Source: Candidatus Woesearchaeota archaeon
GTDB taxonomy: Archaea > Nanobdellota > Nanobdellia > Woesearchaeales > UBA119
Length of the DNA stretch: 64,000 nucleotides
Direction: 5' to 3'
Assembly (NCBI GenBank): GCA_035363095.1
Contig: DAOSEK010000001.1
Span: forward strand, 82,473 to 146,472
The notes under the pieces: generated by a model
What the model saw: the letters and a program-made list of their open reading frames with translations, nothing else
Told to the model about the DNA's origin: nothing
The model's database searches: none
Shown here: piece by piece, positions 5,076 through 50,891 of the stretch
Layout of the letters: each line of letters opens with the position of its first letter
Position numbering within the stretch: position 1 is the first letter of the stretch
Program-made: the position numbers and the translations under genes

Positions 5076-7019
5076 TTAAGAGATTAGATAAACCAAGAAG
5101 AATTCTTTTACGACAAAATAGTTATATGAGATGTTTTCAAATCTCGGTTTTGCAATTTTGAATGCATCTTCTTTGCATACATAAACAACACCTTCTTGCA
5201 AGTTGCCTGCAAAGAATTCCTTTTGTCTGTTAAGTATATTTTCTTCTTGTTCTTTTGTCGTTCTTGAAAGACGCACATCTGAAATTTTAAGATTGTTTTC
5301 AATTGCGATTATTGTGAATTCTTTGTGTATTGGTGTGTTTATGTTGATATTAATTAAAGCTAACTCGCTATTTGTTTTGGCTACAAATTGCCATATCGGG
5401 TCCTCTAATATATTTTTGTATTTATGTTTTACAGATGTAAGTTTTGATACTTCGTTAAATATTGATGATAGTTCATATATGTGTAAGATTAGAAAAATGA
5501 TTAAAAATATACAAACTAGATTTTGAATGTTAGGAGTTTTAACCTTTGAAAAAGTATAGAAAATGAAAATAATGATTAGATAATAAAGTGGCCATAAAAA
5601 CCTCGCACTCGCAGCGAATTGCGTTAAAATAATCAAGAAACTGGGGATTTCATATTCTAGTATGAGATTGTTATTAAAGCGTATTTGGTTTGATAAAGAA
5701 AATATTGCCAAAAGAACTACTGCAAGAGCTAAATGAAATTTTTTATAAAAAATCTTTTGGAGTATTCTTTTTCTAAGTGAGATTATAAGTGTAATTGCCA
5801 ATCCTAATAATACACTTATCCCTAAATAATTAAACACCTCACTATTTGATGAAAATATTGGAAAAGAATTAAAAAATCTTGAATAGTAAAGGGGATTAAA
5901 TAAAGAGTTTATATCGTTTGCACAGGTTCCAAATTCATTAATTCCAGATGAAATACTAGCTTGCCCTATTCCTATGAAGTACCCTGAAAAGAACATGATA
6001 AGAATTTGTAAAAATATAATTGGGGTTAATATAATAGACATTTTTAGGATATTATTTTTTTTGAGTTGTGAGATAAAATAGAAGATAAATACAATAAATA
6101 CCATTACGTATAGGTATAAATGTATGAGAAGTGCTGTTGAAATTAGCAGTGTCCAGTATAAAATATCTTTTTTTTCTTTCTTTTTTAAAAAAAGGTAAAA
6201 GGATGCGATTATTAAGAAATGTGCCAGTAGTGCAAGATGACCGCATAAGTAACGTTGTGCAAGTATTGGACTTAGTATGAAAAAAAGGGATGAAGGTATT
6301 AGAAAATTCATTTTTGTTGAGTATAGCTTTAATAACTTAAATGAGAAATGCCCCATTAGGATGTAACATGTTAGAATCCAAATGCCAAAGTATTGGAATG
6401 GAGTTGGTAGTATTTTATTGAAAGGTTTTAAAATGATGGCAAGTAGGGGGATTGAATCTGTGAATACTACGCTTGTTTGGGGGTATCCAATTGATACTAT
6501 TTTTCCAATTGGAAACTGTAATCCTTCTTGTCTGTATGCAAGCCAACCGTAATAGTAGTGTTTAATATCACCATCTCCTAAATTGCCCTGCAAAAGCCAG
6601 TCGACATAATTGGGGTTTAAAAGTGAGATATTGAATATGGATAGAAAAATAATTGTTCCTAGAATTATACCAGTCCAAGGGATTATCTTATTTAGAACAG
6701 GAGTATTTTTTGAGAATGATACTGCTAAAAAAATTAAAATAGATAAAAAGAATACTATTAATGTTTGAAGGATAGAAAAATATTTTGCTCTGAAAATTAA
6801 GTAAAAAGTTACAAAAAGCGATAAGCATATTGAAGATAACAAAACTCTTTTCAAAAAAGCCTTTTTTGAAGGAGTATTCTTGTTGGTAGAAGCGTTTGGA
6901 ACAAATTCTTTTGGGATTATATTATTATCACCTTTTGAACAGTTTGCAAATGAACTATATGAATCTAACCAACAAGTTATTTGAATCAGTGGGTATTTTA
7001 AATATGTGAAAATGGACAT
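5076..7019 (-). CDS. Large polytopic membrane protein (GT-C-like / glycosyltransferase-like family candidate), paralog 1
   Basis: 647 aa. It has an N-terminal membrane domain of about 12 TM helices with a conserved YYGWLAYRQEGLQFPIG...SVVFTDSIPLL block, and a C-terminal soluble domain of about 130 aa. It is a tandem paralog of 7148..9148. Confidence 0.5.
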   Translation of the reverse strand: MSIFTYLKYPLIQITCWLDSYSSFANCSKGDNNIIPKEFVPNASTNKNTPSKKAFLKRVLLSSICLSLFVTFYLIFRAKYFSILQTLIVFFLSILIFLAVSFSKNTPVLNKIIPWTGIILGTIIFLSIFNISLLNPNYVDWLLQGNLGDGDIKHYYYGWLAYRQEGLQFPIGKIVSIGYPQTSVVFTDSIPLLAIILKPFNKILPTPFQYFGIWILTCYILMGHFSFKLLKLYSTKMNFLIPSSLFFILSPILAQRYLCGHLALLAHFLIIASFYLFLKKKEKKDILYWTLLISTALLIHLYLYVMVFIVFIFYFISQLKKNNILKMSIILTPIIFLQILIMFFSGYFIGIGQASISSGINEFGTCANDINSLFNPLYYSRFFNSFPIFSSNSEVFNYLGISVLLGLAITLIISLRKRILQKIFYKKFHLALAVVLLAIFSLSNQIRFNNNLILEYEIPSFLIILTQFAASARFLWPLYYLIIIFIFYTFSKVKTPNIQNLVCIFLIIFLILHIYELSSIFNEVSKLTSVKHKYKNILEDPIWQFVAKTNSELALINININTPIHKEFTIIAIENNLKISDVRLSRTTKEQEENILNRQKEFFAGNLQEGVVYVCKEDAFKIAKPRFENISYNYFVVKEFFLVYLIS

Positions 7020-7147: not shown

Positions 7148-9148
7148 TTAAGGAACTAGGTATACCACGTCGAATTTTCCAACAATAAAATGACGATGAG
7201 AAGTGTTAAATAGGTTTTTTGTTTTATTGTACAGCTCACGAGTACTTAAGTAAGCTACACCTCGTTGGAGATCACCATTTAAATATTCGTTTTTTCGCTT
7301 GAGAATATGTATATCCTGTTCAAGCGTAGTTCTTGCTAAACGAACATTGGAAATTTTCAGATTATATTTAATTGCGACTATTGTAAATTCTTGATAATCA
7401 GGCAAATTATCAGTCAAGTCAATTAGAGATAGTTCGCTATTTGCTTTGGATACCTCCTCCCAGAAGGTCATTTTAAGGTATAGATTATTGTACGTGTGTT
7501 CTTTTAAACTGTATTGTGTAACCTCTTGATAAATTGATGAGAGTTCATATGTTTGAAATATCAATAGGATTAAAATTATTATTGCGAATAATGAATTTTT
7601 TTTCAATTTTGCAAATGTTATGAAGATAAAAAGAAATACTAAATAGTATAAAGGCCATAGGAATCTGGCCGTTGCAACAAATTGTGTTAAGAATGTAAAA
7701 AAGTTAGGAATGTTATATTCAAATAATATATTTCTATTTAACCTTATTTTGTTTGATAAGGAAAAGAAGCCTAATATTAATGATGAAAATATTAACCAAA
7801 AATTTTTGAAAAAGAGTCTTTTAAATGTTCTTGTGAAAAAAGAGAGGGTTATTGCGATTAAAAGCCCTACGATTATTCCTAACCCTAAGTAGTTAAAAAC
7901 ATAAATATCTGGGGTTTTAATTGGCAACATCATCGATTTTAATACTCTTGAATAGTTTAGTGGATTTATTAAAGAGTTTAGATTACTACTACAAAGACCA
8001 AATTCATTACCTCCTGAAGCTATCCCTGAGTTTGTTGTTCCTATGAAATATCCGGAGATATAAATTAAAAAGAATTGACATATTGATATTAGGACTAAAT
8101 AACATAATATTTTGAAGAGATTATTTTTTTTTATGATCGTAATTGAGTAAAATAGGAATATGAAAAAAATCAGGGCGTATAGATATAGGTGAGTTAATAA
8201 TGATGAAGAAAGTAACAAGAACCATTTTAAAAGGTCTTTTTTTTCTTTCTTTTTTAAAAAAAGATAAAAGGATGCTATTATTAAAAAATGTGCCATTAAA
8301 GCGATATGACTACAAATAAATCTTTGGGTCATAATAGGACTTAGTATGAAAAAAAGGGATGAAGGTATTAAATAATATATTTTTTGAGAATATAGTGCTA
8401 ATAGTTTAAATGAGAAATGCCCCATTAGCATGTAACATATTAGAATCCAAATGCCAAAGTATTGGAATGGAGTTGGTAGTATTTTATTGAAAGGTTTTAA
8501 AATGATGGCAAGTAGGGGGATTGAATCTGTGAATACTACGCTTGTTTGGGGGTATCCAATTGATACTATTTTTCCAATTGGAAACTGTAATCCTTCTTGT
8601 CTGTATGCAAGCCAACCGTAGTAGTGAAATTTTGTGTCACCACTACCTACGTCTTCCAATAATAGCCAGTCATCGTAGGAAGGGTTTATAATTGTGATGT
8701 TAAATATAGATAGAAATACAAGTCCTCCAAGGATTAAGCCTGTTAATTGAGGCAATTTTTTAAGGAGAGGATTATTTTTTTTAAGTATTAGGTAAAAAAA
8801 CAATGCGATTGATAGAGATAGTGTGATTGTTGTTTGGAATGTTGTGAAGTTTTTGGCTCTAAAAACTAAATAGAATGAGAGGAATAAAATTAAATAAATG
8901 AACAATAGATATATGTAATTTTCATTTATCTTTTTAGTAATGAAGGATATTTTTGAGAGGGGCAGATTTGGAAGATCTGAATTTTTTGTTGAGATTGTTT
9001 TATGCCAATCATTTTTTTGATTTTCGTTTGAGGTGTAACTAGATTTGTTAGAAGAATCAGGATTGTTTTTATGTTTATTTAAAAAAATGGGAGGATTCAT
9101 GGGATTTTTTGCAGGTATCAAAAGTTTATAAGCTTTTCTTGGGTGCAC
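7148..9148 (-). CDS. Large polytopic membrane protein, paralog 2 of 5076..7019
   Basis: 666 aa with the same architecture as paralog 1. About 220 nt are near-identical to paralog 1 at the DNA level. The true start may lie downstream of the annotated Met, because the N-terminus is low-complexity. Confidence 0.5.
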   Translation of the reverse strand: MHPRKAYKLLIPAKNPMNPPIFLNKHKNNPDSSNKSSYTSNENQKNDWHKTISTKNSDLPNLPLSKISFITKKINENYIYLLFIYLILFLSFYLVFRAKNFTTFQTTITLSLSIALFFYLILKKNNPLLKKLPQLTGLILGGLVFLSIFNITIINPSYDDWLLLEDVGSGDTKFHYYGWLAYRQEGLQFPIGKIVSIGYPQTSVVFTDSIPLLAIILKPFNKILPTPFQYFGIWILICYMLMGHFSFKLLALYSQKIYYLIPSSLFFILSPIMTQRFICSHIALMAHFLIIASFYLFLKKKEKKDLLKWFLLLSSSLLTHLYLYALIFFIFLFYSITIIKKNNLFKILCYLVLISICQFFLIYISGYFIGTTNSGIASGGNEFGLCSSNLNSLINPLNYSRVLKSMMLPIKTPDIYVFNYLGLGIIVGLLIAITLSFFTRTFKRLFFKNFWLIFSSLILGFFSLSNKIRLNRNILFEYNIPNFFTFLTQFVATARFLWPLYYLVFLFIFITFAKLKKNSLFAIIILILLIFQTYELSSIYQEVTQYSLKEHTYNNLYLKMTFWEEVSKANSELSLIDLTDNLPDYQEFTIVAIKYNLKISNVRLARTTLEQDIHILKRKNEYLNGDLQRGVAYLSTRELYNKTKNLFNTSHRHFIVGKFDVVYLVP

Positions 9149-10680: not shown

Positions 10681-11085
10681 GTAAACATCTACTGTTTAGT
10701 TTTTGATTGGATTTTTTATTAGGTGTTTAACTAAATATTTAACTAGATATTTAATTGGGCATTTGACTAAATATTTGATGGTTTTTTATTGAATTTCTTA
10801 TTGTTTGGGCAATGCTTATTTTTAAATATTTGTTAAGTGCACCAAAAATAGGATTTGACTTGAATAGATTTTGAGCATAATTTTAAATATAATGATTACA
10901 TTTGGCTTTGAGGTTGAAATATGTTTATTGGACTCTTGAGTGATTGGGTCTTTAATTATTTAGTGTATTTTGCAGGGATAAGTTTTTTGGTAGCATTATG
11001 ATTTTGTGATTTAGAATATTTATATTTTGGTGTGTTTTTTACATGTGTTTTTTATTAGAATTTAAATTGAATGAGATGGTGAGAG

Positions 11086-17344: not shown

Positions 17345-17486
17345 ATTTTAATAGTGAAATGTAAATAATAAATAGATTTGTATTAAAAAAGTTGTTTTTA
17401 CCCAACTTTGACAGTTAAATATTAAAGTGTTCTTAGTTTGTTTGGATTTATGACAAAACAAACAAAACTAAGAACAAACACCATAA

Positions 17487-17651
17487 ATCAACCTCACCCT
17501 GAATGGCGAGGCCTGTTGGTAATGTAAAAGCATACGCTGTATTAACGCGAGGTTGTTGATTACAAAAAAGCGTACTGAGTCCTCTTGTTGAAACACGAGA
17601 TATGCTTTACTATTGACCAAAGTGTGCGACTGAGAAGAATTTTATGAAATC
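17487..17651. repeat. Modular intergenic repeat: hairpin module plus K-box/palindrome-variant
   Basis: ATCAACCTCACCC...GCGAGGTTGTTGAT forms an imperfect inverted-repeat hairpin. It is followed by a CTCTTGTTGAAACACGAG stem-loop, then a degenerate K-box (TTGACCAAAGTGTGCGAC) and the variant TTTTATGAAATC. The sequence matches the copies at 22964, 28284, 45694 and 49257. Confidence 0.75.
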
Positions 17652-17911
17652 GATGAAAAAAAGAGTGATTTATTCTAATTTTGGTCCCATAAATGAGCTA
17701 ATTTGCCTCCAAAATGAGACAAAAACATAAAAAAATAATGATTTTTTTAAGAAATTAGAGCAACTGACAATTGAATATTCTTGATGAAATAATTAGCAAA
17801 CTGTCAAACGTGGGATACAACAATCATTTCATAAGAACTATTTTACAACATAAGAACTATTTTACACAATTACAAATGTGCAATTGAAGATGAGCAATAA
17901 TAGTAAGAATA

Positions 17912-20381: not shown

Positions 20382-22589
20382 ATGTTAAATATGGCAGAAA
20401 AATTATCAGATAAGGTTACAAAACTTGCAAGGGAACCCACAAATATTAGAAATATTGCAATATGTGCTCATATTGATCATGGAAAGACTACTTTTTCAGA
20501 TAATCTTTTAGCAGGCGCTGGAATGATGTCAGAAGAGCTTGCTGGAAAGGTTTGCGCACTTGATTTTCATGATGATGAAAAGGAAAGAGGAATTACTATT
20601 GATTCTGCAGCAGTTTCTATGATTCATAAGGTAAATGAGAAGGATTTTTTGATTAATCTAATTGATACCCCAGGGCATGTGGATTTTGGGGGTAATGTAA
20701 CAAGGGCAATGAGAGCTGTTGATGGAAGCATTGTTTTGGTTTGCGCAGTTGAAGGGATTATGCCTCAGACTGAGACTGTTTTAAGACAGTCTTTAAGAGA
20801 GAAGGTTAAACCAATACTTTTTATCAATAAGGTTGATAGGCTTATAAAGGAACTTAAATTGACTCCTGAGAAAATGCAGGAGAGATTTGTTAGGGTTATT
20901 GCAGAGGTAAATAAGTTTATCAGGTCTATTTGCCCTGAGGAATTTAAGGACCAGTGGGTTGTTAAGGTTGAGGATGGGTCAGTTTGTTTTGGATCTGCGT
21001 TTCATAATTGGGCACTTTCGCTTCCATATATGAAGAACACAGGGATGTCTTTTAAGGATATTATTTCAGCATATGAGGAAAACGAAACTGAAGCGTCTAA
21101 AAAGCTTGCAAAAAGCGCTCCATTACATAAGGTTGTTTTGAATTCTGTTGTTAAGCATTTGCCTAATCCAAAGGAAGCACAAGGTTATAGGATTCCTAAA
21201 ATATGGCATGGAGATTTGGATACCCCGCAAGGACAGGCTTTAAAAAACTGCGACCCTAAGGGAGCTTTTGCAATGGTGATTACTAAGATTGTTATTGATC
21301 CTAATGCAGGAGAGATTTGTACTGGAAGGATTTTTTCAGGAACTGCAAAGAAAGGTGAAACGATATATATTGCAGGAAGAAAAGAGCAATCAAGGCTTCA
21401 ACAGATCTATATTTACAAGGGTGCCAAAAAGGATATTATTGAAGAGGTTGAGTGTGGTAATATTATTGGTATAGGAGGTGTAAAGACCTATGCAGGGGAT
21501 ACTATTACAACAGATCCAGAACTTGAACCTTTTGAGCAGATTAAACATATTTTTGATCCAGTGATTACTAAGGCAATTGAAGCGAAAAGCCCAGCTGACC
21601 TTCCAAAGCTTGTGGAGGTTTTAAGACAGGTGCAAAAGGAAGATCCTTCTATTGCAATTGTTATTAATGAAGAAACTGGAGAGTATTTGATGTCAGGGAT
21701 GGGAGAGCTTCATTTAGAGATTATTGAGAATAGGATTATCAAAGAGAAAAATCTCAATGTTAAGACTTCACCACCAATCGTTGTTTATAGAGAAACTATT
21801 ACAAAAAAATCACAGGAGTTTGAGGGAAAGTCACCAAATAAGCACAACAAGCTATATTTTGTTGTTGAACCTTTAGAACCTAAGATTTTGGAGTTAATTA
21901 AGCTTGGTGAGATTACTGATATGAGGGTTAAGAAGAAAGAAGATACTCTTTGGGGTGCTTTAGAGAAAGCAGGAATGGATGCAAAGGAAGCAAGAAAGGT
22001 AAGGGATGTTTTTAAGGGAAATCTTTTGGTTGATGGAACAAGAGGTATTGTTCACATTGGAGAGATTATAGAGATGGTAATGGATATGTTTGAGGATGTT
22101 ATGAATGCAAGCCCTCTTGCTAGGGAACCTGCGTATGGAGTTAAGGTTACTTTACTTGATGCAAAGCTTCACGAGGATTCTATCCACAGAGGACCAGCCC
22201 AGCTATATCCTGCTGTTAGAGAGGGTATTAGAGGAGCGATTATGACTGCAGGTCCAATGCTTTTAGAGCCACTCCAGATTTTAAGATTTGAAGCTCCTGA
22301 TCAATATGTTGGAGAGGTTTCTAAACTTATTGCAAATAAGAGAGGACAGCTTTTGGATATGGTACAAGAAGGGGTTCATGCAACGATAATAGGAAAGCTT
22401 CCTGTTGCTGAGATGTTTGGGCTTTCAAGTGAATTGAGATCAGCTACTGGTGGAAGAGGGTCATTCTCACTTGTTGATCAGGCTTTTGAGGTCCTACCTT
22501 ATGAGTTCCAGGATAAGATAAGAGAACAGATCAGAAGCAGAAAAGGGCTTAAGCCTTTGTCTGAAGAAAGCTTTGTTGAGACTCAGTGA
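20382..22589 (+). CDS. fusA: Translation elongation factor 2 (aEF-2)
   Basis: G-domain AHIDHGKTT, DTPGHVDF, NKVDR. It includes the diphthamide-region GG.GSF..AF. Confidence 0.95.
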   Translation: MLNMAEKLSDKVTKLAREPTNIRNIAICAHIDHGKTTFSDNLLAGAGMMSEELAGKVCALDFHDDEKERGITIDSAAVSMIHKVNEKDFLINLIDTPGHVDFGGNVTRAMRAVDGSIVLVCAVEGIMPQTETVLRQSLREKVKPILFINKVDRLIKELKLTPEKMQERFVRVIAEVNKFIRSICPEEFKDQWVVKVEDGSVCFGSAFHNWALSLPYMKNTGMSFKDIISAYEENETEASKKLAKSAPLHKVVLNSVVKHLPNPKEAQGYRIPKIWHGDLDTPQGQALKNCDPKGAFAMVITKIVIDPNAGEICTGRIFSGTAKKGETIYIAGRKEQSRLQQIYIYKGAKKDIIEEVECGNIIGIGGVKTYAGDTITTDPELEPFEQIKHIFDPVITKAIEAKSPADLPKLVEVLRQVQKEDPSIAIVINEETGEYLMSGMGELHLEIIENRIIKEKNLNVKTSPPIVVYRETITKKSQEFEGKSPNKHNKLYFVVEPLEPKILELIKLGEITDMRVKKKEDTLWGALEKAGMDAKEARKVRDVFKGNLLVDGTRGIVHIGEIIEMVMDMFEDVMNASPLAREPAYGVKVTLLDAKLHEDSIHRGPAQLYPAVREGIRGAIMTAGPMLLEPLQILRFEAPDQYVGEVSKLIANKRGQLLDMVQEGVHATIIGKLPVAEMFGLSSELRSATGGRGSFSLVDQAFEVLPYEFQDKIREQIRSRKGLKPLSEESFVETQ

Positions 22590-22651
22590 AGATAATAAAA
22601 AGTTATTTTTTATTTTTTTATATTTAGTGTACTCGATTGTTTCTTGATTTC

Positions 22652-22785
22652 GTGAATCCGTCATTCGCATACTTTTGTCTTAAAGCCGAAAGTTTGAAGA
22701 TAGGAATTTACCAAAGGCTTAAGCTAGAGTATCGGTGAGGTCCGCAGTGCATTTATGCTTAAAAGTTTTTCATTTTTATGAATAA
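22652..22785. repeat. Modular intergenic repeat, partial (K-box-rc plus terminator-like module)
   Basis: TCATTCGCATACTTTTGTC (K-box reverse complement) ... GCATTTATGCTTAAAAGTTTTTCATTTTTATGAA (M4-type hairpin/T-run). Confidence 0.6.
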
Positions 22786-22963
22786 TGAAGAGTCTTTTGG
22801 CATGTTTAGAATATATGTTGTTTTTTCATATCTAAGCAAGGATACATATCTTCGATACATATTTTCAAATGTTATTAAATGAATATCTTATCAATAAATT
22901 AATAAATCAAAAATAAAAACCAATTGGTAAGACTACTAGATAAAATTACTACTAGATAAAATT

Positions 22964-23226
22964 GATTTCATGAAATCCAGTTCATTCGCATACTTTGGTC
23001 AATAGAAAAGCATACCTCGTGTTTCAACACGAGGACTCGGTACGCTTTTTTGTAATCAACAACCTCGCTGAATGCAGCGCATGCTTTTATATTACCAACA
23101 TACCTCGCTCTTTAGGGTGAGGTTGTTGATTTTTCAAGCCAAAGTAAGAATAGACGGCTTCATGGACGAAAAACCTCGACTATTCACGAGATACCTCGGC
23201 ATTTATGCCGAGGTTTTTCATTTGAA
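22964..23226. repeat. Modular intergenic repeat, most complete copy (palindrome, K-box, hairpin module, M4 hairpin)
   Basis: Begins with GATTTCATGAAATC and the K-box-rc. It carries the approximately 115-nt hairpin module in reverse orientation and ends with AAACCTCGACTATTCACGAGATACCTCGGCATTTATGCCGAGGTTTTTCATTT. Confidence 0.75.
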
Positions 23227-24895: not shown

Positions 24896-24899
24896 TTTT

Positions 24900-25060
24900 G
24901 ATTTCATGAAATCCTCGTTCATTTGCATACTTTGATCTTTTGGGTCAGAGTAAGAAGAGAGGGGCTCACTAAACGATTAACAAAGAGAAATTCAAGTAAG
25001 GAGAAACCTTTAACTATCTGCAAGGCACTTAGGGCGTTTATGCTTCAAGGTTTTTTTTGG
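24900..25060. repeat. Modular intergenic repeat between aIF6 and pfdA
   Basis: GATTTCATGAAATC plus K-box-rc (TCATTTGCATACTTTGATC) ... AACCTTTAACTATC ... GGGCGTTTATGCTTCAAGGTTTTTTTT. Confidence 0.7.
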
Positions 25061-28251: not shown

Positions 28252-28283
28252 TAGTGATATAAATTTATCTGTGATTGTGTTAA

Positions 28284-28475
28284 ATCAACAACCTCGCCCT
28301 AAATGGCGAGGTATGTTGGTAATATAAAAGCATGCGCTAAATTCGGCGAGGTTGTTGATTACAAAAAAGCGTACTGAGTCCTCGTGTTGAAACACGAGAT
28401 ATCCTTTTCTATCAATGAAAAACCTCGAAATAAATGCCACGTTATCTTGCGAATAGTTAAGGTCAATCGTTGCGT
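28284..28475. repeat. Modular intergenic repeat (hairpin module plus M4-rc module)
   Basis: ATCAACAACCTCGCCCTAAATGGCGAGGTATGTTGG...GGCGAGGTTGTTGAT, followed by CCTCGTGTTGAAACACGAG, then AAAACCTCGAAATAAATGCCACG...GCGAATAGTTAAGGTCAATCG. Confidence 0.75.
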
Positions 28476-28543
28476 TAATCTGTCTCTTTTGATTTTGCTC
28501 TGAAAATGAAGGTATACTACTAAAAGGATTTCACTACATAAAT

Positions 28544-29218
28544 TTATTTAAAGAACTCTAGCTTATTTTGATAAAGTATGCCCTGTTTTAGTTCAACAGG
28601 CCTAAACTCATCTATTATGAGCGTTGCGTTAAGCCATGCTGATAGCTCTTCTGGGTTTCCGATTGTTGCTGAAAGGGATATGAATTGCGCAGTTGGGCAG
28701 ATATCTTTTAGAAGGGTTATTACTACTTCAGTTGTTGGACCCCTTGATACATCGTTTAGTAGGTGTATTTCATCGATTACAAATACTCCTACATCAGTTA
28801 TCCAAGGAGTTTTATGCCGAAGAAGTGAATCAAGTTTTTCAGGTGTTAAAAGGATTAAGTCATATGTTGCAAGGATTGAATCGTTTGAGTCAAAGTCTCC
28901 GGTTGATTGGGCGATTTTTATTATTTTTTCATATTTTTTTTTGAAGTCTTTGAATTTTTCGTTTGCAAGGGCTTTTAGTGGAAGAACATATACTGCCTTT
29001 TGGTTTGATTTAAGTATTTTTTCAAGCATTGCAAGCTCTGCAATGAGTGTCTTTCCTGAAGCGGTTGGCGTGCAGATTAATAGGTTTGTCCCTTCTAAAA
29101 GCCCAGCGTTTATGGCTTTTAACTGAGCGGGCCTTAGGTTTGTTATTCCTTGGCTTTTCAATATTTCAAAAAGATTAGGGCTTATTTTTTGATTAAGGAT
29201 TTCTATTGAATTGTTCAT
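28544..29218 (-). pseudogene. Ski2/Hel308-like DEAD/DEAH helicase, N-terminal RecA1 domain only (truncated)
   Basis: Contains motif I TPTASGKT, Ia VLPLKALANEK, II VIDEIH and III SATIGN. The ORF stops about 20 aa after motif III. Full Hel308 proteins are about 700 aa. A repeat element lies immediately downstream. Confidence 0.5.
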
Positions 29219-29220
29219 TT

Positions 29221-29859
29221 TTATTCTTCTTGGATTTGTTCAGCCCTTTGTTTTTCAATTAGAATTTCTGCGATATCACAGGGTAATGAGGCAATGTCAT
29301 CTTCTCTGAAAGGGCCTATCATTTCTCCAGAGTTATCTACGAACTGAGGAACGGGAAGCTTAAATCTTACTAGCAAAAGCCCTTTTTTGCATTCGGTTTT
29401 TGTTGGCTCTTCTTTTTTAGATTCTAATATCGAGATGTCAGGCTTTTCAAATACAAAAAGCTTATCTAAAACTGCTCTTTTATAGCTTGAGTAAAATTCT
29501 TCTAATGCGTTATATAGTACTTTTTCTTCGGAAAGCATAAGCCTTAGGTCTGTACCCTTTTGGCCTGTTCTAACAGATAGAAATGCTAGGTCTGTTATTT
29601 TTTGCGCTCTTTTTTCAAGTATGTCTTTTACAAGGTTTTTTATGTTTGTTATCTCTTTTAGCTTTTTTTGCCTTTCAACTGAGAATATTAGGTCGTCAGT
29701 TTTGAATTGTGTTAGAGATTTTTGCTTTTCTTTAAGATATCCTAAGAGGTCCTCAAAAAAGCTTGAGTCTATCTCTTGGAGCTCTCCAGATTTTTTCTCT
29801 TTTAATAAGAGATTATAGAGTGTTTCGAATGTGATGTTTATTTTGGTTTTTTCTTCCAT
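29221..29859 (-). CDS. GINS complex subunit (Gins51-like: A-domain then B-domain)
   Basis: N-terminal FETLYNLLLKEKKSGELQEIDSSFFEDL is GINS A-domain-like. C-terminal LLLVRFKLPVPQFVDNSGEMIGPF..DIASLPCDIAEILI is B-domain-like. It overlaps the helicase fragment start by 4 nt. Confidence 0.45.
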   Translation of the reverse strand: MEEKTKINITFETLYNLLLKEKKSGELQEIDSSFFEDLLGYLKEKQKSLTQFKTDDLIFSVERQKKLKEITNIKNLVKDILEKRAQKITDLAFLSVRTGQKGTDLRLMLSEEKVLYNALEEFYSSYKRAVLDKLFVFEKPDISILESKKEEPTKTECKKGLLLVRFKLPVPQFVDNSGEMIGPFREDDIASLPCDIAEILIEKQRAEQIQEE

Positions 29860-35162: not shown

Positions 35163-35345
35163 GCCAAAGTATGAGAATGAGCTGGATTTTATGAAATGAA
35201 AAACCTTGGCGTAACTTCCAAAATATCTCGCAAATAGTTGAGGTTAAATGTTGAGGTTAAATGTTATGTGAATCCATATCTTCAAACTTTAGAACCCAAG
35301 ACCAAGCCTAAAGACCAAAGTATGAGAATGAGCTGGATTTTAGGA
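35163..35345. repeat. Modular repeat copy upstream of cdc6: two direct K-box/palindrome-variant units flanking a tandem GTTGAGGTTAAAT x2
   Basis: GCCAAAGTATGAGAATGAGCTGGATTTTATGAAATG occurs at 35163. GACCAAAGTATGAGAATGAGCTGGATTTTAGG occurs at 35313. The internal sequence is homologous to the reverse complement of 42480..42635. Confidence 0.7.
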
Positions 35346-35440
35346 AAACGATAAATGAGAGGGATGATTTTCACTAAAACACAATGTTTATAAAAAATTT
35401 AGATTTTTCATTTGGATAACTAGAACATAAAGGTGAGATA

Positions 35441-42479: not shown

Positions 42480-42635
42480 GATTTCATGAAATCCAACATC
42501 ACTTCGCATACTTTGGTCTTTAGACTTGGTCTTTGGGCCTGAAGTTTGAAGAGACAAATTCATATAACATTTAACCTCAACTATCCACAGGATACCGGGA
42601 GCATTTATTCCGAGGTTTTTCATTTTTATGAAATC
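42480..42635. repeat. Modular intergenic repeat flanked by GATTTCATGAAATC at both ends (MITE-like unit)
   Basis: GATTTCATGAAATC, K-box-rc (CACTTCGCATACTTTGGTC), CTTTAGACTTGGTC..., AACCTCAACTATCC, GGGAGCATTTATTCCGAGGTTTTTCATTTTTATGAAATC. Confidence 0.75.
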
Positions 42636-42711
42636 TTTAATGGATTTTGAATAATTTGATATTTTAACCTAATATAAGAATAGTATAAGAAGAAACGAAT
42701 TAAGAAGGGAA

Positions 42712-42793
42712 GTTTCATAAAACGATTAACCTTTAACTATCTAGTAAGATACCCTTAAGCGTTTATGCTTAAAGAAGGTTTTTCATGTTTATG
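42712..42793. repeat. Partial repeat (M4-type module) directly upstream of 42808 ORF
   Basis: AAACGATTAACCTTTAACTATCTAGTAAGATACCCTTAAGCGTTTATGCTTAAAGAAGGTTTTTCATGTTTATG is homologous to 24960..25060. Confidence 0.65.
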
Positions 42794-45468: not shown

Positions 45469-45693
45469 TATTTACATAAGTGTATAATTTGGGTTTTTAA
45501 ATATATGGTATTGAAAGTTAAGGATTCTTTTTGGTTTTTTTTAAAAATAGATTTTTAGGTTATATAATCTTAATTAGTACATGATATAAATAGAAACAAT
45601 ATATATGCTTCAATATCGCTTTATAAATAATTCCGTTAGTCAACTTATGCGCGTTATCTAGCAATGTATACTATATTTTTTTATTCTTAGCGA

Positions 45694-45845
45694 AATCAAC
45701 AACCTCGCCCTAAAGGCCGAGATATGTTGGTAATATAAAAGCATGCGCTGTATTAAAGCGAGGTTGTTGATTACAAGGTTGTTGATTACAAAAAAGCGTA
45801 CCAAGTTTTCGTGTTTAAACATCAGGTATCCTTTTCTATCAATAA
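45694..45845. repeat. Modular intergenic repeat (hairpin module with internal 14-nt duplication GGTTGTTGATTACA x2)
   Basis: AATCAACAACCTCGCCCTAAAGGCCGAGATATGTTGG...GCGAGGTTGTTGATTACAAGGTTGTTGATTACAAAAAAGCGTACCAAG. Confidence 0.75.
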
Positions 45846-48937: not shown

Positions 48938-49087
48938 AAAATTATTTTAGACCAGAATAAATTAATAGATTGTGATAAAAAAACCGTAAAAATTACAACA
49001 TGATAAATAACCTTTTCATATATATCAAGAAGTTTACTTTTTTGATGATATTCTTTTGTAATTGGTCTTTTCAAACGTTAAGCCTAA

Positions 49088-49456
49088 AGACAAAATTATA
49101 CAAAATGAACTGGATTTCATGAAATGAAAAAACTCTGCATAAATAATGAGGTATCTTGCGAACAGTCGAGGTTAATCCTTGCATTAACCCCTCTATTCAA
49201 ACTTTTGCCTCAAGAATAAACCTCAAGACCAAAGAATGCGAAGTAATGCTGGATTTCATGAAATCAACAATCTCGCCCTAAAGGGCGAGGCATGTTGGTA
49301 ATATAAAAGCATCAGCTGTATTAAAACGAGGTTGTTGATTACAAAAAAGTGTACCGAGTCCTCGTGTTGAAACACGAGGTATGCTTTTCTATTAACCAAA
49401 GTATGCAAAATGACAGATTCATGAAATCAAAGTATACAAAATGGGCTAGATTTCAC
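49088..49456. repeat. Composite repeat cluster: four K-box/palindrome units plus M3 module plus hairpin module
   Basis: K-box plus GGATTTCATGAAATG occurs at 49088. An M3 module lies between the K-box units, containing GAACAGTCGAGGTTAATCC. K-box plus GGATTTCATGAAATC occurs at 49228. The hairpin module spans 49257-49372 (AACAATCTCGCCC...GAGGTTGTTGAT, CCTCGTGTTGAAACACGAGG). Two more degenerate K-box units follow. Confidence 0.75.
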
Positions 49457-49582: not shown

Positions 49583-50194
49583 ATGGAATTACAAAATGTT
49601 GAAATTAAAGCATTTAACAGGTGGAGTACAAACGGCATAGAACTGACAGATGAAGGCCTAAAAAGATACGTAAATTTAAGCCCTAAACTGGTGCCTAAGA
49701 CAGGTGCAAAATACTCAGGACAAAGATTTTATAAATCAAGAACTTTCATCGTCGAGAGACTTATAAACAAAATAATGGTCGCAGGCCATAGAGCTAAAAA
49801 ACATAAAATCACTTCAGGATTTATGACTGGAAAAGGAGTAACAGCATATAAAATTGTAGAAGATGCATTAAGCATAATTGAAAGAAAAACAGGAGCAAAC
49901 CCAATTGCAGTGTTTGTAAAAGCACTTGAAAACGGTGCGACAAGAGAAGAGATTGTTAATATAGAATATGGTGGGGCTAGATACACAAAAGCAGTAGATT
50001 GCGCCCCTCAAAGAAGGGTTGATTTAGTTTTAAGATTCTTCATTCAAGGTGCTTATGCGAAATCTTTTAACTCAAAAAAAGGAATTAGAGACGCATTAGC
50101 AGATGAGATTTTAGCAGCATATAATCTAAGTCAAAACTCATTTGCAGTATCTAAAAAGCTTGAGCTTGAAAGACAAGCAGATGCTTCAAGATAA
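49583..50194 (+). CDS. rps7: Ribosomal protein S7 (uS7)
   Basis: 203 aa with the S5e/S7 signature (KAVDCAPQRRVDLV). It is not linked to rps12 or fusA here. Confidence 0.9.
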   Translation: MELQNVEIKAFNRWSTNGIELTDEGLKRYVNLSPKLVPKTGAKYSGQRFYKSRTFIVERLINKIMVAGHRAKKHKITSGFMTGKGVTAYKIVEDALSIIERKTGANPIAVFVKALENGATREEIVNIEYGGARYTKAVDCAPQRRVDLVLRFFIQGAYAKSFNSKKGIRDALADEILAAYNLSQNSFAVSKKLELERQADASR

Positions 50195-50236
50195 AACCTT
50201 TTATATCATTATTATTTTTTCTTTTTGAATTTAACC
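50165..50236. repeat. Direct repeat copy 1 (S7 3' end plus terminator)
   Basis: TTGAAAGAcaaGCAGATGCTTCAAGATAAAACCTTTTATATCATTATTATTTTTTCTTTTTGAATTTAACC. It is identical, bar 3 nt, to 50765..50836. Confidence 0.85.
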
Positions 50237-50341
50237 GCGTTTTTAAACAGATGGCTTTATTTGTTTAATTTGTCGTTTAAATGAGTTTTTGGAATAATTC
50301 TTTTAAATATACTTTAGTATTTGTAAAAGATTAAATAGAAA

Positions 50342-50794
50342 GTGATTAATTTTTGCAAGATGGTATCTGAAAATAAACCTCTAAAAGTCTATGTTGCTGG
50401 AAAATTTGAAAAAAAGCTTATTGTTTTAAATTTGTATGAAAGGCTCAAAAGTATGGGTCACGAGATTTCTTATGATTGGACGAACCATATTGAGATTAAG
50501 CCATACTCCGAAAATGTTAGGCTTGCAACTACCTACTCAGATTCTGAGTTAGAAGGCATATCAAACAGCGATGTTTTCATTTATCTTTCCGATAATGAGG
50601 GAACTACGCTTAAGATGGAAGTGGGCGCAGCAATTATGGCCAAGATGATTACAGGAAGCCCAAAACAAATATACATTGTGGGAGAATATAACGATAAGTC
50701 ACCTTGGTTTATGAATGAAAAGTTTGTTAAGCGACTTGATAATATTGATGATGTTATAAAAGATATTGAAAGATATGCAGATGCTTCAAGATAA
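50342..50794 (+). CDS. Nucleoside 2-deoxyribosyltransferase-like protein; C-terminal 5 aa (ADASR) encoded by the duplicated S7 3' end
   Basis: KVYVAGKFEKK... has an NDT-like N-terminus. The last codons lie inside direct-repeat copy 2. Confidence 0.4.
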   Translation: MINFCKMVSENKPLKVYVAGKFEKKLIVLNLYERLKSMGHEISYDWTNHIEIKPYSENVRLATTYSDSELEGISNSDVFIYLSDNEGTTLKMEVGAAIMAKMITGSPKQIYIVGEYNDKSPWFMNEKFVKRLDNIDDVIKDIERYADASR

Positions 50795-50836
50795 AACCTT
50801 TTATATCATTATTATTTTTTCTTTTTGAATTTAACC
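50765..50836. repeat. Direct repeat copy 2, exactly 600 nt downstream of copy 1
   Basis: TTGAAAGAtatGCAGATGCTTCAAGATAAAACC...GAATTTAACC. Confidence 0.85.
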
Positions 50837-50891
50837 AAGTTTTTTGGCCTAGAAATTTAGTTGTCTAATTTTTCTTTTTAGAAATCATCAG

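Follow-up and report, generated by a model that had tools for sequence, protein, structure and literature searches.

The window, a stretch of 64,000 nucleotides, carries a dense family of intergenic repeats. Ten loci built from shuffled modules had been listed in an initial annotation. A full-copy profile matches all ten, far above chance, and no other site in the window. Two of the loci, 42480-42635 and 42712-42793, belong to one cluster, so that the ten merge into nine. The repeats occupy 1,949 nt (3.0% of the window), with roughly one unit per 4-7 kb. A repeat search recovers the module families M2 and M3/M4 in both orientations, as had been noticed from the sequence. The sequence GATTTCATGAAATC, initially described as a perfect palindrome and named module M1, occurs five times in the window with at most one mismatch, when only 0.04 occurrences are expected from shuffled sequences.

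Two non-coding elements underlie the modules, namely A (about 125-155 nt) and B (about 133 nt). They also occur as fusions: the L-type, in which an A left end is joined to a B element, and a composite of 260 nt, seen at 22964-23224. The units of the window are listed in table 1.

Table 1. Units of the repeat family in the window, very probably palindrome-associated transposable elements (PATEs), with the parts of the composite.
Feature	Position	Strand	Remarks
TTGAT target	22962..22966	+	adjoins the composite on its 5' side and supplies the left half of the 'M1 palindrome'
Composite PATE (locus of the finding)	22967..23221	+	A left end TTCATGAAATCC...GCATACTTTGGTC, then B, then A 3' half ending TTTTTCAT; the next two bases are TT, usually conserved
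B inside the composite	22999..23130	+	terminal sequence TTGTTGAT at 23123-23130
Left-end hairpin of the composite's B	23015-23022 / 23027-23034	+	CCTCGTGT/ACACGAGG
Right-end hairpin of the composite's B	23103-23110 / 23115-23122	+	CCTCGCTC/GGGTGAGG
A right end of the composite	23194..23221	+	hairpin CCTCGGCA-TTTA-TGCCGAGG, then TTTTTCAT
L-type unit, A left end fused to B	17487..17651	-	nhmmer E = 9.5e-43, profile positions 1-164
A-type PATE	22646..22776	+	full-length A-profile match, E = 3.5e-12; lies 57 nt downstream of aEF-2
A-type PATE	24902..25055	+	between the aIF-6 and prefoldin-alpha genes; A-profile E = 1.2e-18
A-type PATE 28415-28533, then B 28282-28413, head-to-tail	28280..28533	-	junction ...GGTTTTTCAT/TGATAGAAAAG
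A-type PATE 35196-35347 and solitary left-end fragment 35163-35197	35163..35347	-	A-profile E = 4.4e-32; array upstream of orc1/cdc6; the A copy carries an internal duplication
Two A-type PATEs head-to-tail, 42482-42623 and 42625-42786	42482..42786	+	full-length A-profile E = 5.8e-38 and 1.8e-19; the second copy is degenerate
Solitary B with 15-nt internal duplication	45690..45841	-	nhmmer E = 3.3e-35; the duplication is a 15-column insertion in alignment A2
Four-piece array: left-end fragment 49429-49456, L-type 49261-49428, A-type 49124-49263, partial A 49057-49124	49057..49456	-	each piece follows the TTGAT/TTCAT end of the preceding piece

Both elements have a hairpin near each end, of the form CCTCGNNN-TTTA-NNNCGAGG and preceded by ATAC. 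The left-end hairpin of A begins about 25-30 nt from the start of the element and the right-end hairpin stops 8 nt before its end; the corresponding distances in B are 14-15 nt and 8 nt. Across the A and B hairpins, 76-91% of the cells are paired; in the comparison with a slid-partner control the figures are 76-89% against 28-53%. The values for the B hairpins alone, in alignment A2 of 99 B copies, are 86-89%. The right terminus is TTCAT or TTGAT. There are no terminal inverted repeats: the A ends TTCATGAAATCC... and ...GAGGTTTTTCAT, like the B ends TAATAGAAAAG... and ...GAGGTTGTTGAT, are not mutually inverted. In A-type and composite copies the unit ends with an internal T5-6 run, which in A follows the GC hairpin of the right end; solitary B copies have a right end without a long T-run after it, and B carries the TATA-like sequence TTTTATATT. 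The units, 125-260 nt long, are too short for a transposase, and no Y1 or other transposase ORF is found inside them. The internal duplication reported for one copy, at 45.7 kb, is real, although it measures 15 nt and not 14 nt.

A TT(G/C)AT-like pentanucleotide immediately precedes the elements on their 5' side. Among 75 distinct copies with the A-type left end TTC[A/G]TGAA, 72 have TT[G/C]AT immediately before it, the positions farther upstream being random, and in 22 of these 72 cases the pentanucleotide is itself the right end of another element. The TTGAT target (24898-24902) of one A-type copy begins 3 nt past the stop codon of aIF-6. B is preceded by TTNAT with any middle base, in many cases precisely where an A element ends in TTTTTCAT; the exception is the composite, whose internal B has no canonical TTNAT before it. 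The supposed palindromic module arises where the target TTGAT meets the element start TTCATGAAATC, as junction logos and the empty site described below demonstrate; an explanation of the palindrome by a site-specific recombinase or a dif-like site was rejected on the same evidence. The neighbouring K-box (M1') is made up of the conserved (G)CATAC and the 5' arm of the left-end hairpin.

There is a single clean case of a filled and an empty site. Contig L023 has the empty site CCCTAGATTTTTTAGGC, and in L064 the site is filled by a composite (CCCTTGATTT, then the element CATGAATCC...TTTTTCATTT, then TTTAGGC). This insertion splits a 247-aa ORF and is antisense to the coding gene. The empty site already has GATTTT, and half of the palindrome thus predates the insertion. 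The pair fits insertion without duplication; ATTT is present at both junctions, which gives an ambiguity of 2-4 nt and makes a short target duplication possible in this case. No consistent target duplication was seen across copies. Another candidate for an empty site, in the pair L051 and L065, more probably reflects a recombination event involving two copies of B. At the site equivalent to that of the L-type unit at 17487..17651, contig L068 has an intact 481-aa DDE transposase ORF (DDE_Tnp_1) in place of the unit.

Copies are not restricted to the window, the elements being present also in one GTDB representative MAG and 77 metagenome loci. All outside loci were retrieved with one exact 20-mer of the B core, and the near-invariance of this core was set aside as an ascertainment effect. 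The metagenome loci (about 600 kb) hold about 180 copies; for all related contigs sampled (about 770 kb) the count is likewise about 180, with one IS200-type tnpA. Nearly all copies (170 of 181) are intergenic. Another MAG has 11 complete composites of 89-96% identity, whose ends are sharp and whose flanks are unrelated, and 33 more full copies lie in the metagenome loci. The mean pairwise identity of B copies is 88%. As for the organism of the window, its exact EF-2 protein is encoded on 24 public contigs, among them one of 103 kb (ENA ERZ1756056 NODE_137). The repeats have no match in plasmid and phage collections. A viral origin was dropped: viral contigs gave no B-core pattern matches, and the two K-box matches in them were due to chance, inside unrelated sequence.

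The initial annotation saw no transposase in the window, and a Y1 search finds none there. The sole Y1 match in about 770 kb is on a related contig, Ga0334885_1001047 (L028), at 8320-8766 (Pfam Y1_Tnp, E = 5.4e-32), where A and B copies co-occur with the gene. It encodes the 146-aa TnpA associated with the family and belongs to an insertion sequence (IS) at about 8160-8786. The right end of this IS is AGATAC-TCCGCCC-TTTA-GGGCGGA-GAGGTTCAT, that of B is ACATAC-CTCGCCC-TTTA-GGGCGAG-GTTGTTGAT and that of A is AGATAC-CTCGGCA-TTTA-TGCCGAG-GTTTTTCAT. Local alignment of the 5' end of B with the left end of the IS scores 34 (shuffles 16.7 +/- 3.4, none of 300 reaching this value). At the other end, the IS scores 39 with the 3' end of B (shuffles 13.8 +/- 2.6, none of 300) and 25 with the 3' end of A (14.3 +/- 3.0, three of 300). 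The similarity of the A left end to the IS left end is weak, its score being reached by 17 of 300 shuffles. Judged by these alignments, the ends of the IS are homologous to both B ends and to the A right end, yet not identical to them. The search for matching IS200/IS605 genes proposed earlier yielded a tnpA element with homologous ends, and no tnpB in the same 770 kb.

The related autonomous ISs, about 0.65 kb in length, have tnpA as their sole gene. One TnpA, P0029, is found in identical form with four different upstream flanks, and there are 386 TnpA homologues, mostly on contigs of about 1 kb; on this sequence evidence the IS clade is mobile. Other multi-copy ORFs, considered as candidate transposases, proved to be radical-SAM paralogues, pilin-like proteins, low-complexity ORFs or orthologues between related contigs. 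The pairing of left ends with distant right ends by regular expressions, as a search for long autonomous or cargo-bearing elements, was abandoned, the patterns being too short and too noisy.

The homology of their ends to those of a tnpA-bearing IS supports the reading of the repeats as non-autonomous mobile elements. We consider it very probable that they are non-autonomous derivatives of IS200-type elements (IS200/IS605 family), that is, PATEs, in a Woesearchaeota-like host. A kinship with IS200/IS605 palindrome-associated elements had been proposed from the sequence, and the homology of the ends, the lack of terminal inverted repeats, the insertion at TT(G/C)AT and the ORF-splitting polymorphism bear it out. 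The description of the repeats as undescribed holds for this particular family, which is new, but not for the class: PATEs were defined in 2011 in Haloquadratum walsbyi and other haloarchaea (Dyall-Smith et al. 2011, PMC3119063). According to this definition, PATEs have no terminal inverted repeats but palindromes near both termini, at a longer distance on the 5' side than on the 3' side, and a short targeting oligonucleotide on the 5' side; they show no evident target duplication and are too short for a transposase. The ends of the haloarchaeal PATEs are related to those of IS605-type transposons, and they tend to insert beside or into other mobile elements (PMC3119063).

The elements described here agree with the haloarchaeal PATEs in the lack of terminal inverted repeats and of a transposase, the palindromes near both termini (the 5' one farther away), the short 5' target, perhaps with no target duplication, the IS200/IS605-related ends and the frequent insertion beside mobile elements. 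They have no sequence relationship with them, however, and reside in a DPANN archaeon that is AT-rich and Woesearchaeota-like. As for the autonomous relatives, these are IS200 types with tnpA alone in the present case and mostly tnpB (IS1341) types in haloarchaea. The right ends of the present family, unlike those of the haloarchaeal PATEs, mimic the target, and head-to-tail arrays and re-mobilized composites dominate. The density in the window, about one unit per 4-7 kb, is a further difference. B and the composite form homogeneous families and A a heterogeneous one; both kinds are also present in haloarchaea.

IS608 and ISDra2 belong to the IS200/IS605 family and move by single-strand 'peel and paste' transposition catalysed by a Y1 HUH TnpA. 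By analogy, such a TnpA, supplied in trans, would bind both hairpins on one DNA strand, cutting the left end just past the target pentanucleotide and the right end just past the terminal one. The single-stranded circle released would be re-inserted 3' of another such pentanucleotide, with no duplication of the target. Since the TTGAT/TTCAT right ends imitate the target, new copies would land directly behind resident ones and form shuffled head-to-tail arrays. Any left end may then move jointly with any downstream right end, which could have produced the L-type and the 260-nt composite and with them the modular shuffling, and copies would later decay by mutation. Effects on the host, such as gene disruption and hairpin-plus-T-run terminators, would be by-products. 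The two bases that follow the right end are usually TT (91% and 78%), which a simple transposition model does not require.

The likeness to IS608 and ISDra2 extends to the hairpins near both ends, the right-end hairpin being 8-9 nt from the end, and to the Pfam Y1_Tnp protein of the related autonomous element. A short conserved sequence adjoins the 5' foot of each hairpin, at the position of the guide tetranucleotide of IS608, for which rules for hairpin plus guide sequence have been established (PMC3597680). As in ISDra2, whose target is TTGAT (PMC2806898), insertion is 3' of a pentanucleotide, also TTGAT for A-type elements. In four of the five end types, the nucleotide located 4 nt 5' of each hairpin foot complements the variable centre of the cleavage pentanucleotide (G for TTCAT, C for TTGAT). 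The window elements differ from IS608 and ISDra2 in being geneless, in the relaxed B target, TT(G/C/T/A)AT, and in the target-like terminal pentanucleotide; chemistry, strand specificity and coupling to replication are taken over here by analogy.

Alternatively, the repeats might be structured small-RNA genes, or terminator or regulatory cassettes of the host, that were duplicated across the genome and are maintained by selection on the RNA. B indeed folds far better than shuffled sequence (z = -6), but its two strands fold equally well, as DNA palindromes would, and an old A copy folds no better than its shuffles (z = -0.7). The GC hairpin with T5-6 at the A right end and a slight excess of top-strand G.T wobbles over A.C mismatches (112 versus 78 in B, 86 versus 57 in A, the cells not being independent) are in keeping with an RNA function. 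So is the orientation of the copies relative to flanking genes, co-directional in 58 cases and opposite in 24, with seven of seven co-directional in the window; in IS200/IS605 elements, orientation bias follows the direction of replication (lagging strand). The small-RNA element first suggested finds no support in Rfam, however: only RNase P RNA and a tRNA pass the gathering thresholds in the whole window, and with permissive E-values the repeat regions reach at best 23 bits against thresholds of 42-114, which is chance level. RNAalifold gives no consensus structure for 57 A copies, and compensatory covariation in the hairpins, assessed by explicit pair counting in 57 A and 99 B copies, is not above that of shuffles. 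A candidate long-range stem, pairing the 5' end of B with ATGCTTTTATATT, was rejected as uncompensated, GCAT having changed to GGAT while the partner is unchanged. One copy also breaks a coding gene in antisense, and the ends of the elements match a transposon. We regard selection for an RNA or a cassette as very unlikely.

IS200/IS605 right ends are the source of omega-RNAs, and TnpB/IscB systems with omega-RNA in elements of this family were reportedly treated by Meers and colleagues in 2023. The initial annotation had compared the repeats with such ends, and B might in that case be an RNA-guide gene within TnpB-linked PATEs whose right ends encode guide scaffolds. The family and its structured right-end regions would suit this, as would the size of B (about 130 nt, highly structured and well conserved) and the lack of a long T-run after solitary B copies. 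In about 770 kb, however, a crude screen revealed no TnpB-like ORF, neither as a repeated ORF family of at least 100 aa nor by the RuvC-III-like motif D.NA[AS].N[ILV], nor was an iscB found; the related ISs carry tnpA alone, and the non-coding left and right termini of such an IS align with both ends of B. With Rfam matches and covariation lacking too, and with a T-run in A-type and composite copies that would be expected to stop archaeal transcription before any guide, a guide function appears highly improbable. A classical MITE, mobilized by a DDE transposase and bounded by GATTTCATGAAATC as terminal inverted repeat, was suggested by the palindromes apparently present at both ends of 42480-42635, and a related strain does have a DDE_Tnp_1 gene at the 17.5-kb site. 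At 42.6 kb, however, the second palindrome marks where a second tandem copy starts, head-to-tail with the first; TTCATGAAATCC... and ...GGTTTTTCAT, the consensus ends, do not form inverted repeats, the empty site holds half of the palindrome already, and a consistent target duplication is not seen. This origin is extremely unlikely. REP/BIME sequences with their RAYT (TnpA_REP) enzymes likewise combine abundant intergenic hairpin repeats with a comparatively rare Y1 HUH enzyme. Such repeats are 20-40 nt long, and a single domesticated TnpA_REP gene is flanked by them. A host-retained Y1 gene maintaining short functional hairpins could thus account for some 180 clustered, intergenic repeats against one tnpA in the sampled DNA. 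The units here are longer, have two distinct ends homologous to those of mobile IS200 elements, and in one case disrupt a gene. Nothing points to one domesticated gene with repeats on either side; the TnpAs of the clade lie inside typical IS200 units that have left and right ends of their own, and they are found in several contexts and on numerous collapsed contigs about 1 kb long, as expected of a mobile IS, and domestication has scarcely any chance of being the explanation.

The identification of the repeats as IS200-derived PATEs removes a false lead, that of a new structured RNA or omega-RNA family, and provides an annotation for about 3% of the window and about 180 copies. It also indicates that DPANN (Woesearchaeota-like) genomes, usually held to be streamlined, can bear a dense load of non-autonomous IS200 derivatives, which break genes and replace other transposons. 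The elements very likely fragment metagenome assemblies, because contigs end inside them. The sequence of events leading from target-mimicking right ends to arrays and composites accounts for 'modular shuffled' repeats and may apply to other IS200/IS605 families.

It seems rather unlikely that the family is more than decaying selfish DNA and combines self-seeding spread with recruited transcription signals and target choice by a guide base. For the first of these components, arrays may form behind resident copies by virtue of the target-mimicking right ends and be re-mobilized as new composites. For the second, the sense-biased placement behind genes could reflect the recruitment of stop signals (the GC hairpin and T-run of A) or start signals (the TATA-like TTTTATATT of B). 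The guide base 4 nt 5' of the hairpin foot, if real, would allow IS608-style prediction and re-programming of the target in an archaeal IS200 element, and the well-defined ends and the 146-aa TnpA could provide a compact archaeal test system for guide-directed target choice.

All ten intergenic loci that the initial annotation described as carrying shuffled modules were recovered by a profile HMM built from full copies, which matched nothing else in the window (G + C content 32.7%). After merging, they form nine clusters with a total length of 1,949 nt (3.0% of the window). The 14-nt palindrome (at most one mismatch) occurs five times, compared with 0.04 expected, and the M2 and M3/M4 module families were found in both orientations by a repeat search. 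An archaeal RNase P RNA and a tRNA-Arg lie directly 3' of the focal locus. Rfam has no family for the repeats: the window passes thresholds with RNase P RNA and tRNA only, and scores in the repeat regions stayed at chance level when the search was made permissive.

When all copies were oriented alike, the modules were resolved into two non-coding elements, A and B, and fusions of the two (see table). ATAC is present immediately 5' of every hairpin type. The sequence first described as a K-box (M1') combines (G)CATAC with the left-end hairpin's 5' arm. The B copies are fairly homogeneous (mean pairwise identity 88%) and the A copies heterogeneous (mean column identity 62%). In the composite, B sits in the loop of the A left-end hairpin, and the canonical target is absent at that point.

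Table. Elements and other features in the window and in compared contigs. PATE, palindrome-associated transposable element; hairpins are in parentheses.
Feature	Position	Length	Description
Element A		~125-155 nt	TTCATGAAATCC-N(3-6)-TCATTCGCATAC-(ACTTTGG...CCAAAGT)-...-AACCTCGACTAT...GAGATAC-(CCTCGGCA-TTTA-TGCCGAGG)-TTTTTCAT
Element B		~133 nt	TAATAGAAAAGCATA-(CCTCGTGT-TTCA-ACACGAGG)-...CTTTTTTGTAATCAACAACCTCGC...ATGCTTTTATATTACCAACATA-(CCTCGCCC-TTTA-GGGCGAGG)-TTGTTGAT
L-type unit			A left end fused to B
Composite, focal locus	22964-23224	260 nt	A left end, then B, then A 3' half
L-type PATE	17487-17651
DDE_Tnp_1 ORF remnants	17400-17740		N- and C-terminal, flanking the L-type PATE
Intact DDE_Tnp_1 ORF	L068 610-2055	481 aa	IS4-like transposase
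PATE cluster	28280-28533
Hel308-type ORF	28544-29218 (-)		residues 7-217 of the model
GINS51 ORF	29221-29859		upstream of the Hel308-type ORF
EF-2	20382-22589
Segment identical to L001	10382-23063
12-nt periodic repeats	10700-10773		TATTTAACTAGA-like, at least four units
Direct repeat	50166-50244 and 50766-50844	79 nt	95% identical, 600 nt apart
Tandem paralogous ORFs	5076-7019 and 7148-9148 (-)	~650 aa each	57% identical
L028 IS left end			...TTATTAAACGTCTTAAATAC-(CTCGGTC-TTTA-GGCCGAG)...
L028 IS right end			...CAGATAC-(TCCGCCC-TTTA-GGGCGGA)-GAGGTTCAT
L028 tnpA	L028 8299-8766		Y1_Tnp
IS 5'-UTR hairpin	L028 8245-8330		GCGTGGCG...CGCCACGC

Of 75 distinct copies, 72 have TT[G/C]AT as the five bases directly 5' of TTC[A/G]TGAA, and the sequence is random further upstream. 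Of these 72 pentanucleotides, 17 belong to a B element, as its TTGTTGAT end, and five to an A element, as its TTTTTCAT end. B elements follow TT[C/T/A/G]AT, often as an exact A end (...GGTTTTTCAT joined directly to TAATAGAAAAG). Since TT[G/C]AT lies directly 5' of the left ends, the 'perfect palindrome' GATTTCATGAAATC, previously taken for an element module, is the target GAT joined to the element's TTCATGAAATC. Nor is the unit at 42480-42635 closed by terminal inverted repeats, as had been proposed: a second A copy follows instead. Because right ends finish in the same kind of pentanucleotide as the target, insertions accumulate head-to-tail, for example at 28.3, 42.5 and 49.1 kb of the window, and these target-mimicking right ends explain the modular arrays. 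Arrays are also remodelled by recombination between neighbouring copies (e.g. the outside locus L051 compared with L065). Right ends are usually followed by TT.

Direct evidence of mobility is provided by two orthologous sites on outside contigs. The empty site in L023 (...CCCTAGATTTTTTAGGC...) lies within an intact 247-aa ORF with a weak match to a xylose-isomerase-like TIM barrel, whereas in the filled site of L064 (...CCCTTGATTT / CATGAATCC...260 nt...TTTTTCATTT / TTTAGGC...) this ORF is cut in two. GATTT was already there before the insertion, and the shared ATTT makes the cut positions ambiguous by 2-4 nt.

In the window, the short flanks of the L-type PATE are remnants of a DDE_Tnp_1 transposase ORF. 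A related strain has this ORF intact at the corresponding site (flanks 96-98% identical); in the window the PATE has taken the place of its 1.3-kb core. The Hel308-type ORF, which ends just short of a PATE cluster, encodes the N-terminal DEAD domain alone (models have ~700-740 residues); the helicase C-terminal part is absent after it, where the next ORF is nucleoside deoxyribosyltransferase-like, and the gene may have been truncated by PATE insertions.

An all-against-all ORF comparison revealed no repeated transposase-like ORF family in the loci, and a crude TnpB motif screen over ~770 kb was negative. IS200 (Y1) consensus sequences matched exactly one ORF, and by tblastn there is no other in the window, MAG loci and metagenome loci combined. 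This ORF, a TnpA (the Y1 HUH transposase of the IS200/IS605 family; Pfam Y1_Tnp, E = 5.4e-32, score 110.9 bits, cut-off 23), lies on L028 (contig Ga0334885_1001047), which has A and B copies too. It has 386 homologues at E < 1e-10, one of them named Woesearchaeota IS200/IS605 transposase, mostly on ~1-kb contigs of the kind into which multi-copy ISs collapse in assemblies. One and the same TnpA (P0029) is found behind four different upstream flanks, and all fetched tnpA-bearing IS members end on the right in (A/G)AGATAC-hairpin-GAGGTTCAT, beyond which the sequences are unrelated.

The ends were compared by local alignment scores against 300 shuffles. The B 5' end scores 34 with the IS left end (shuffles 16.7 +/- 3.4) and the B 3' end 39 with the IS right end (13.8 +/- 2.6), values reached by 0 of 300 shuffles in both cases. 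The A 3' end scores 25 with the IS right end (14.3 +/- 3.0; 3/300 as high), and the match of the A 5' end to the IS left end is weak (17/300 as high). Just inside its left-end hairpin, the IS has a segment, CTTTTTTATACAAACC, that aligns with the B core CTTTTTTGTAATCAACAACC. Since its two ends and core align with the IS, B is an internal-deletion derivative that retains both ends.

All tnpA-bearing ISs of the clade (L028, with equivalents in contigs L100-L120) have a conserved 5'-UTR hairpin and a second stem just 5' of the start codon. This arrangement recalls the 5'-UTR structure of enterobacterial IS200, which is known to block translation in that element. Contigs L113 and L115 have, ~90 nt before the left end of their tnpA-bearing IS, a PATE-like right end belonging to another subfamily (...GGGCGGAGTTTTTGATTT followed by GTTTAG...), and this IS copy is inserted immediately behind it. 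Higher-GC (~48%) hosts of the IS clade thus show insertion behind resident right ends as well.

The copies are not restricted to the window. An exact 20-mer from B was used to retrieve loci from 185,579 species-representative genomes and from metagenome contigs. Among the genomes it occurs at 12 loci in one, MAG CAZTMQ01; a thirteenth locus is on a contig of the same co-assembly binned as Saccharibacteria (L018), and the other six matches are unrelated bacterial records with no element in the profile census. The metagenome contigs yielded 77 loci (~600 kb), all near 30% G + C. CAZTMQ01 has eleven composite copies that share 89-96% identity with the one in the window; their boundaries are sharp and their flanks unrelated. 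The census of the metagenome loci gave 180 hits, including 33 composites, 30 B-only, 11 B + A 3' half, five L-type and 52 A 3' parts, and a separate A profile found 69 distinct full-length A copies. Plasmid and phage collections contain no match to the A/B family, and no published description of it was found in a literature search.

The nearest named relatives of the window EF-2 are Candidatus Woesearchaeota proteins (76% and 72% identity), and the core proteins of the window score well below NCBIfam equivalog cut-offs, so that the host is a DPANN-type archaeon. CAZTMQ01, the only species-representative genome with the element, is titled 'uncultured Methanosarcinales archaeon'; as this and the Saccharibacteria label disagree with an EF-2 pointing to Woesearchaeota, both public labels may be wrong. 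A single JGI contig, L001 (Ga0116195_1001415), is identical to the window; it terminates within the composite at 23063, which fits with PATE repeats breaking metagenome assemblies.

In IS608 and ISDra2, TnpA binds subterminal hairpins, a short guide 5' of the hairpin foot reads the cleavage sites, and insertion takes place 3' of a tetra- or pentanucleotide, without duplication (PMC3597680; PMC2806898); the ISDra2 target is TTGAT (PMC2806898). The anatomy of A and B fits this paradigm as well as the published definition of PATEs (PMC3119063). By analogy, TnpA would bind the subterminal hairpins of A and B, with guide-read cleavage and duplication-free insertion 3' of the pentanucleotide. At the position 4 nt 5' of the hairpin foot, ends with the terminal pentanucleotide TTCAT (A and IS right ends) have G and those with TTGAT (B right end; A left end with target) have C; the B left end breaks this rule. 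Very probably, the window repeats are PATEs of Woesearchaeota-like archaea, descended from IS200 elements that carry tnpA only. The PATE class is known and the A/B family is new; it stands out by its density in a reduced genome and by the target-mimicking ends that account for the modular arrays.

A small-RNA element had also been suggested for these repeats. Pairing is present: the two A hairpins are paired in 75.6% of cells compared with 28-48% with slid partners, and the hairpins and 14-bp outer stem of B are 86-94% paired. B folds strongly on both strands (z ~ -6), which is the behaviour of a DNA palindrome, and an old A copy does not fold strongly (z = -0.7). RNAalifold gave no consensus structure for 57 A copies, and covariation is not above shuffles for A (0.161 against 0.154; 122/500 as high) or B (50/500 and 429/500). 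These results speak against an RNA under selection, and with no match in Rfam either, the small-RNA proposal is not supported. On the strand shown, G.T wobbles are modestly more frequent than A.C mismatches (B, 112 against 78; A, 86 against 57; nominal p ~0.02, the cells being non-independent), which weakly supports one structured strand, DNA or RNA.

The distinct copies are mostly intergenic (170/181). Between flanking genes of the same direction, 58 copies are co-directional and 24 opposite (nominal p = 2e-4, orthologous copies being non-independent), and all 7 such loci in the window are co-directional. This would be explained if, behind genes, where archaeal terminators are T-runs, the sense strand is the one that most often carries the T-rich target. 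Alternatively, the co-direction may result from selection for or against terminator-like ends.

Other repeats were observed in the window. The 12-nt periodic repeats, intergenic between the RrnaAD-like and methionyl-tRNA synthetase genes, are unrelated to the PATE family. The 79-nt direct repeat overlaps two gene ends: one copy runs across the 3' end of the S7 gene into the sequence immediately beyond it, and the other does so at the next ORF (150 aa). NCBIfam gave no match for the one ORF tested of the tandem paralogous pair.
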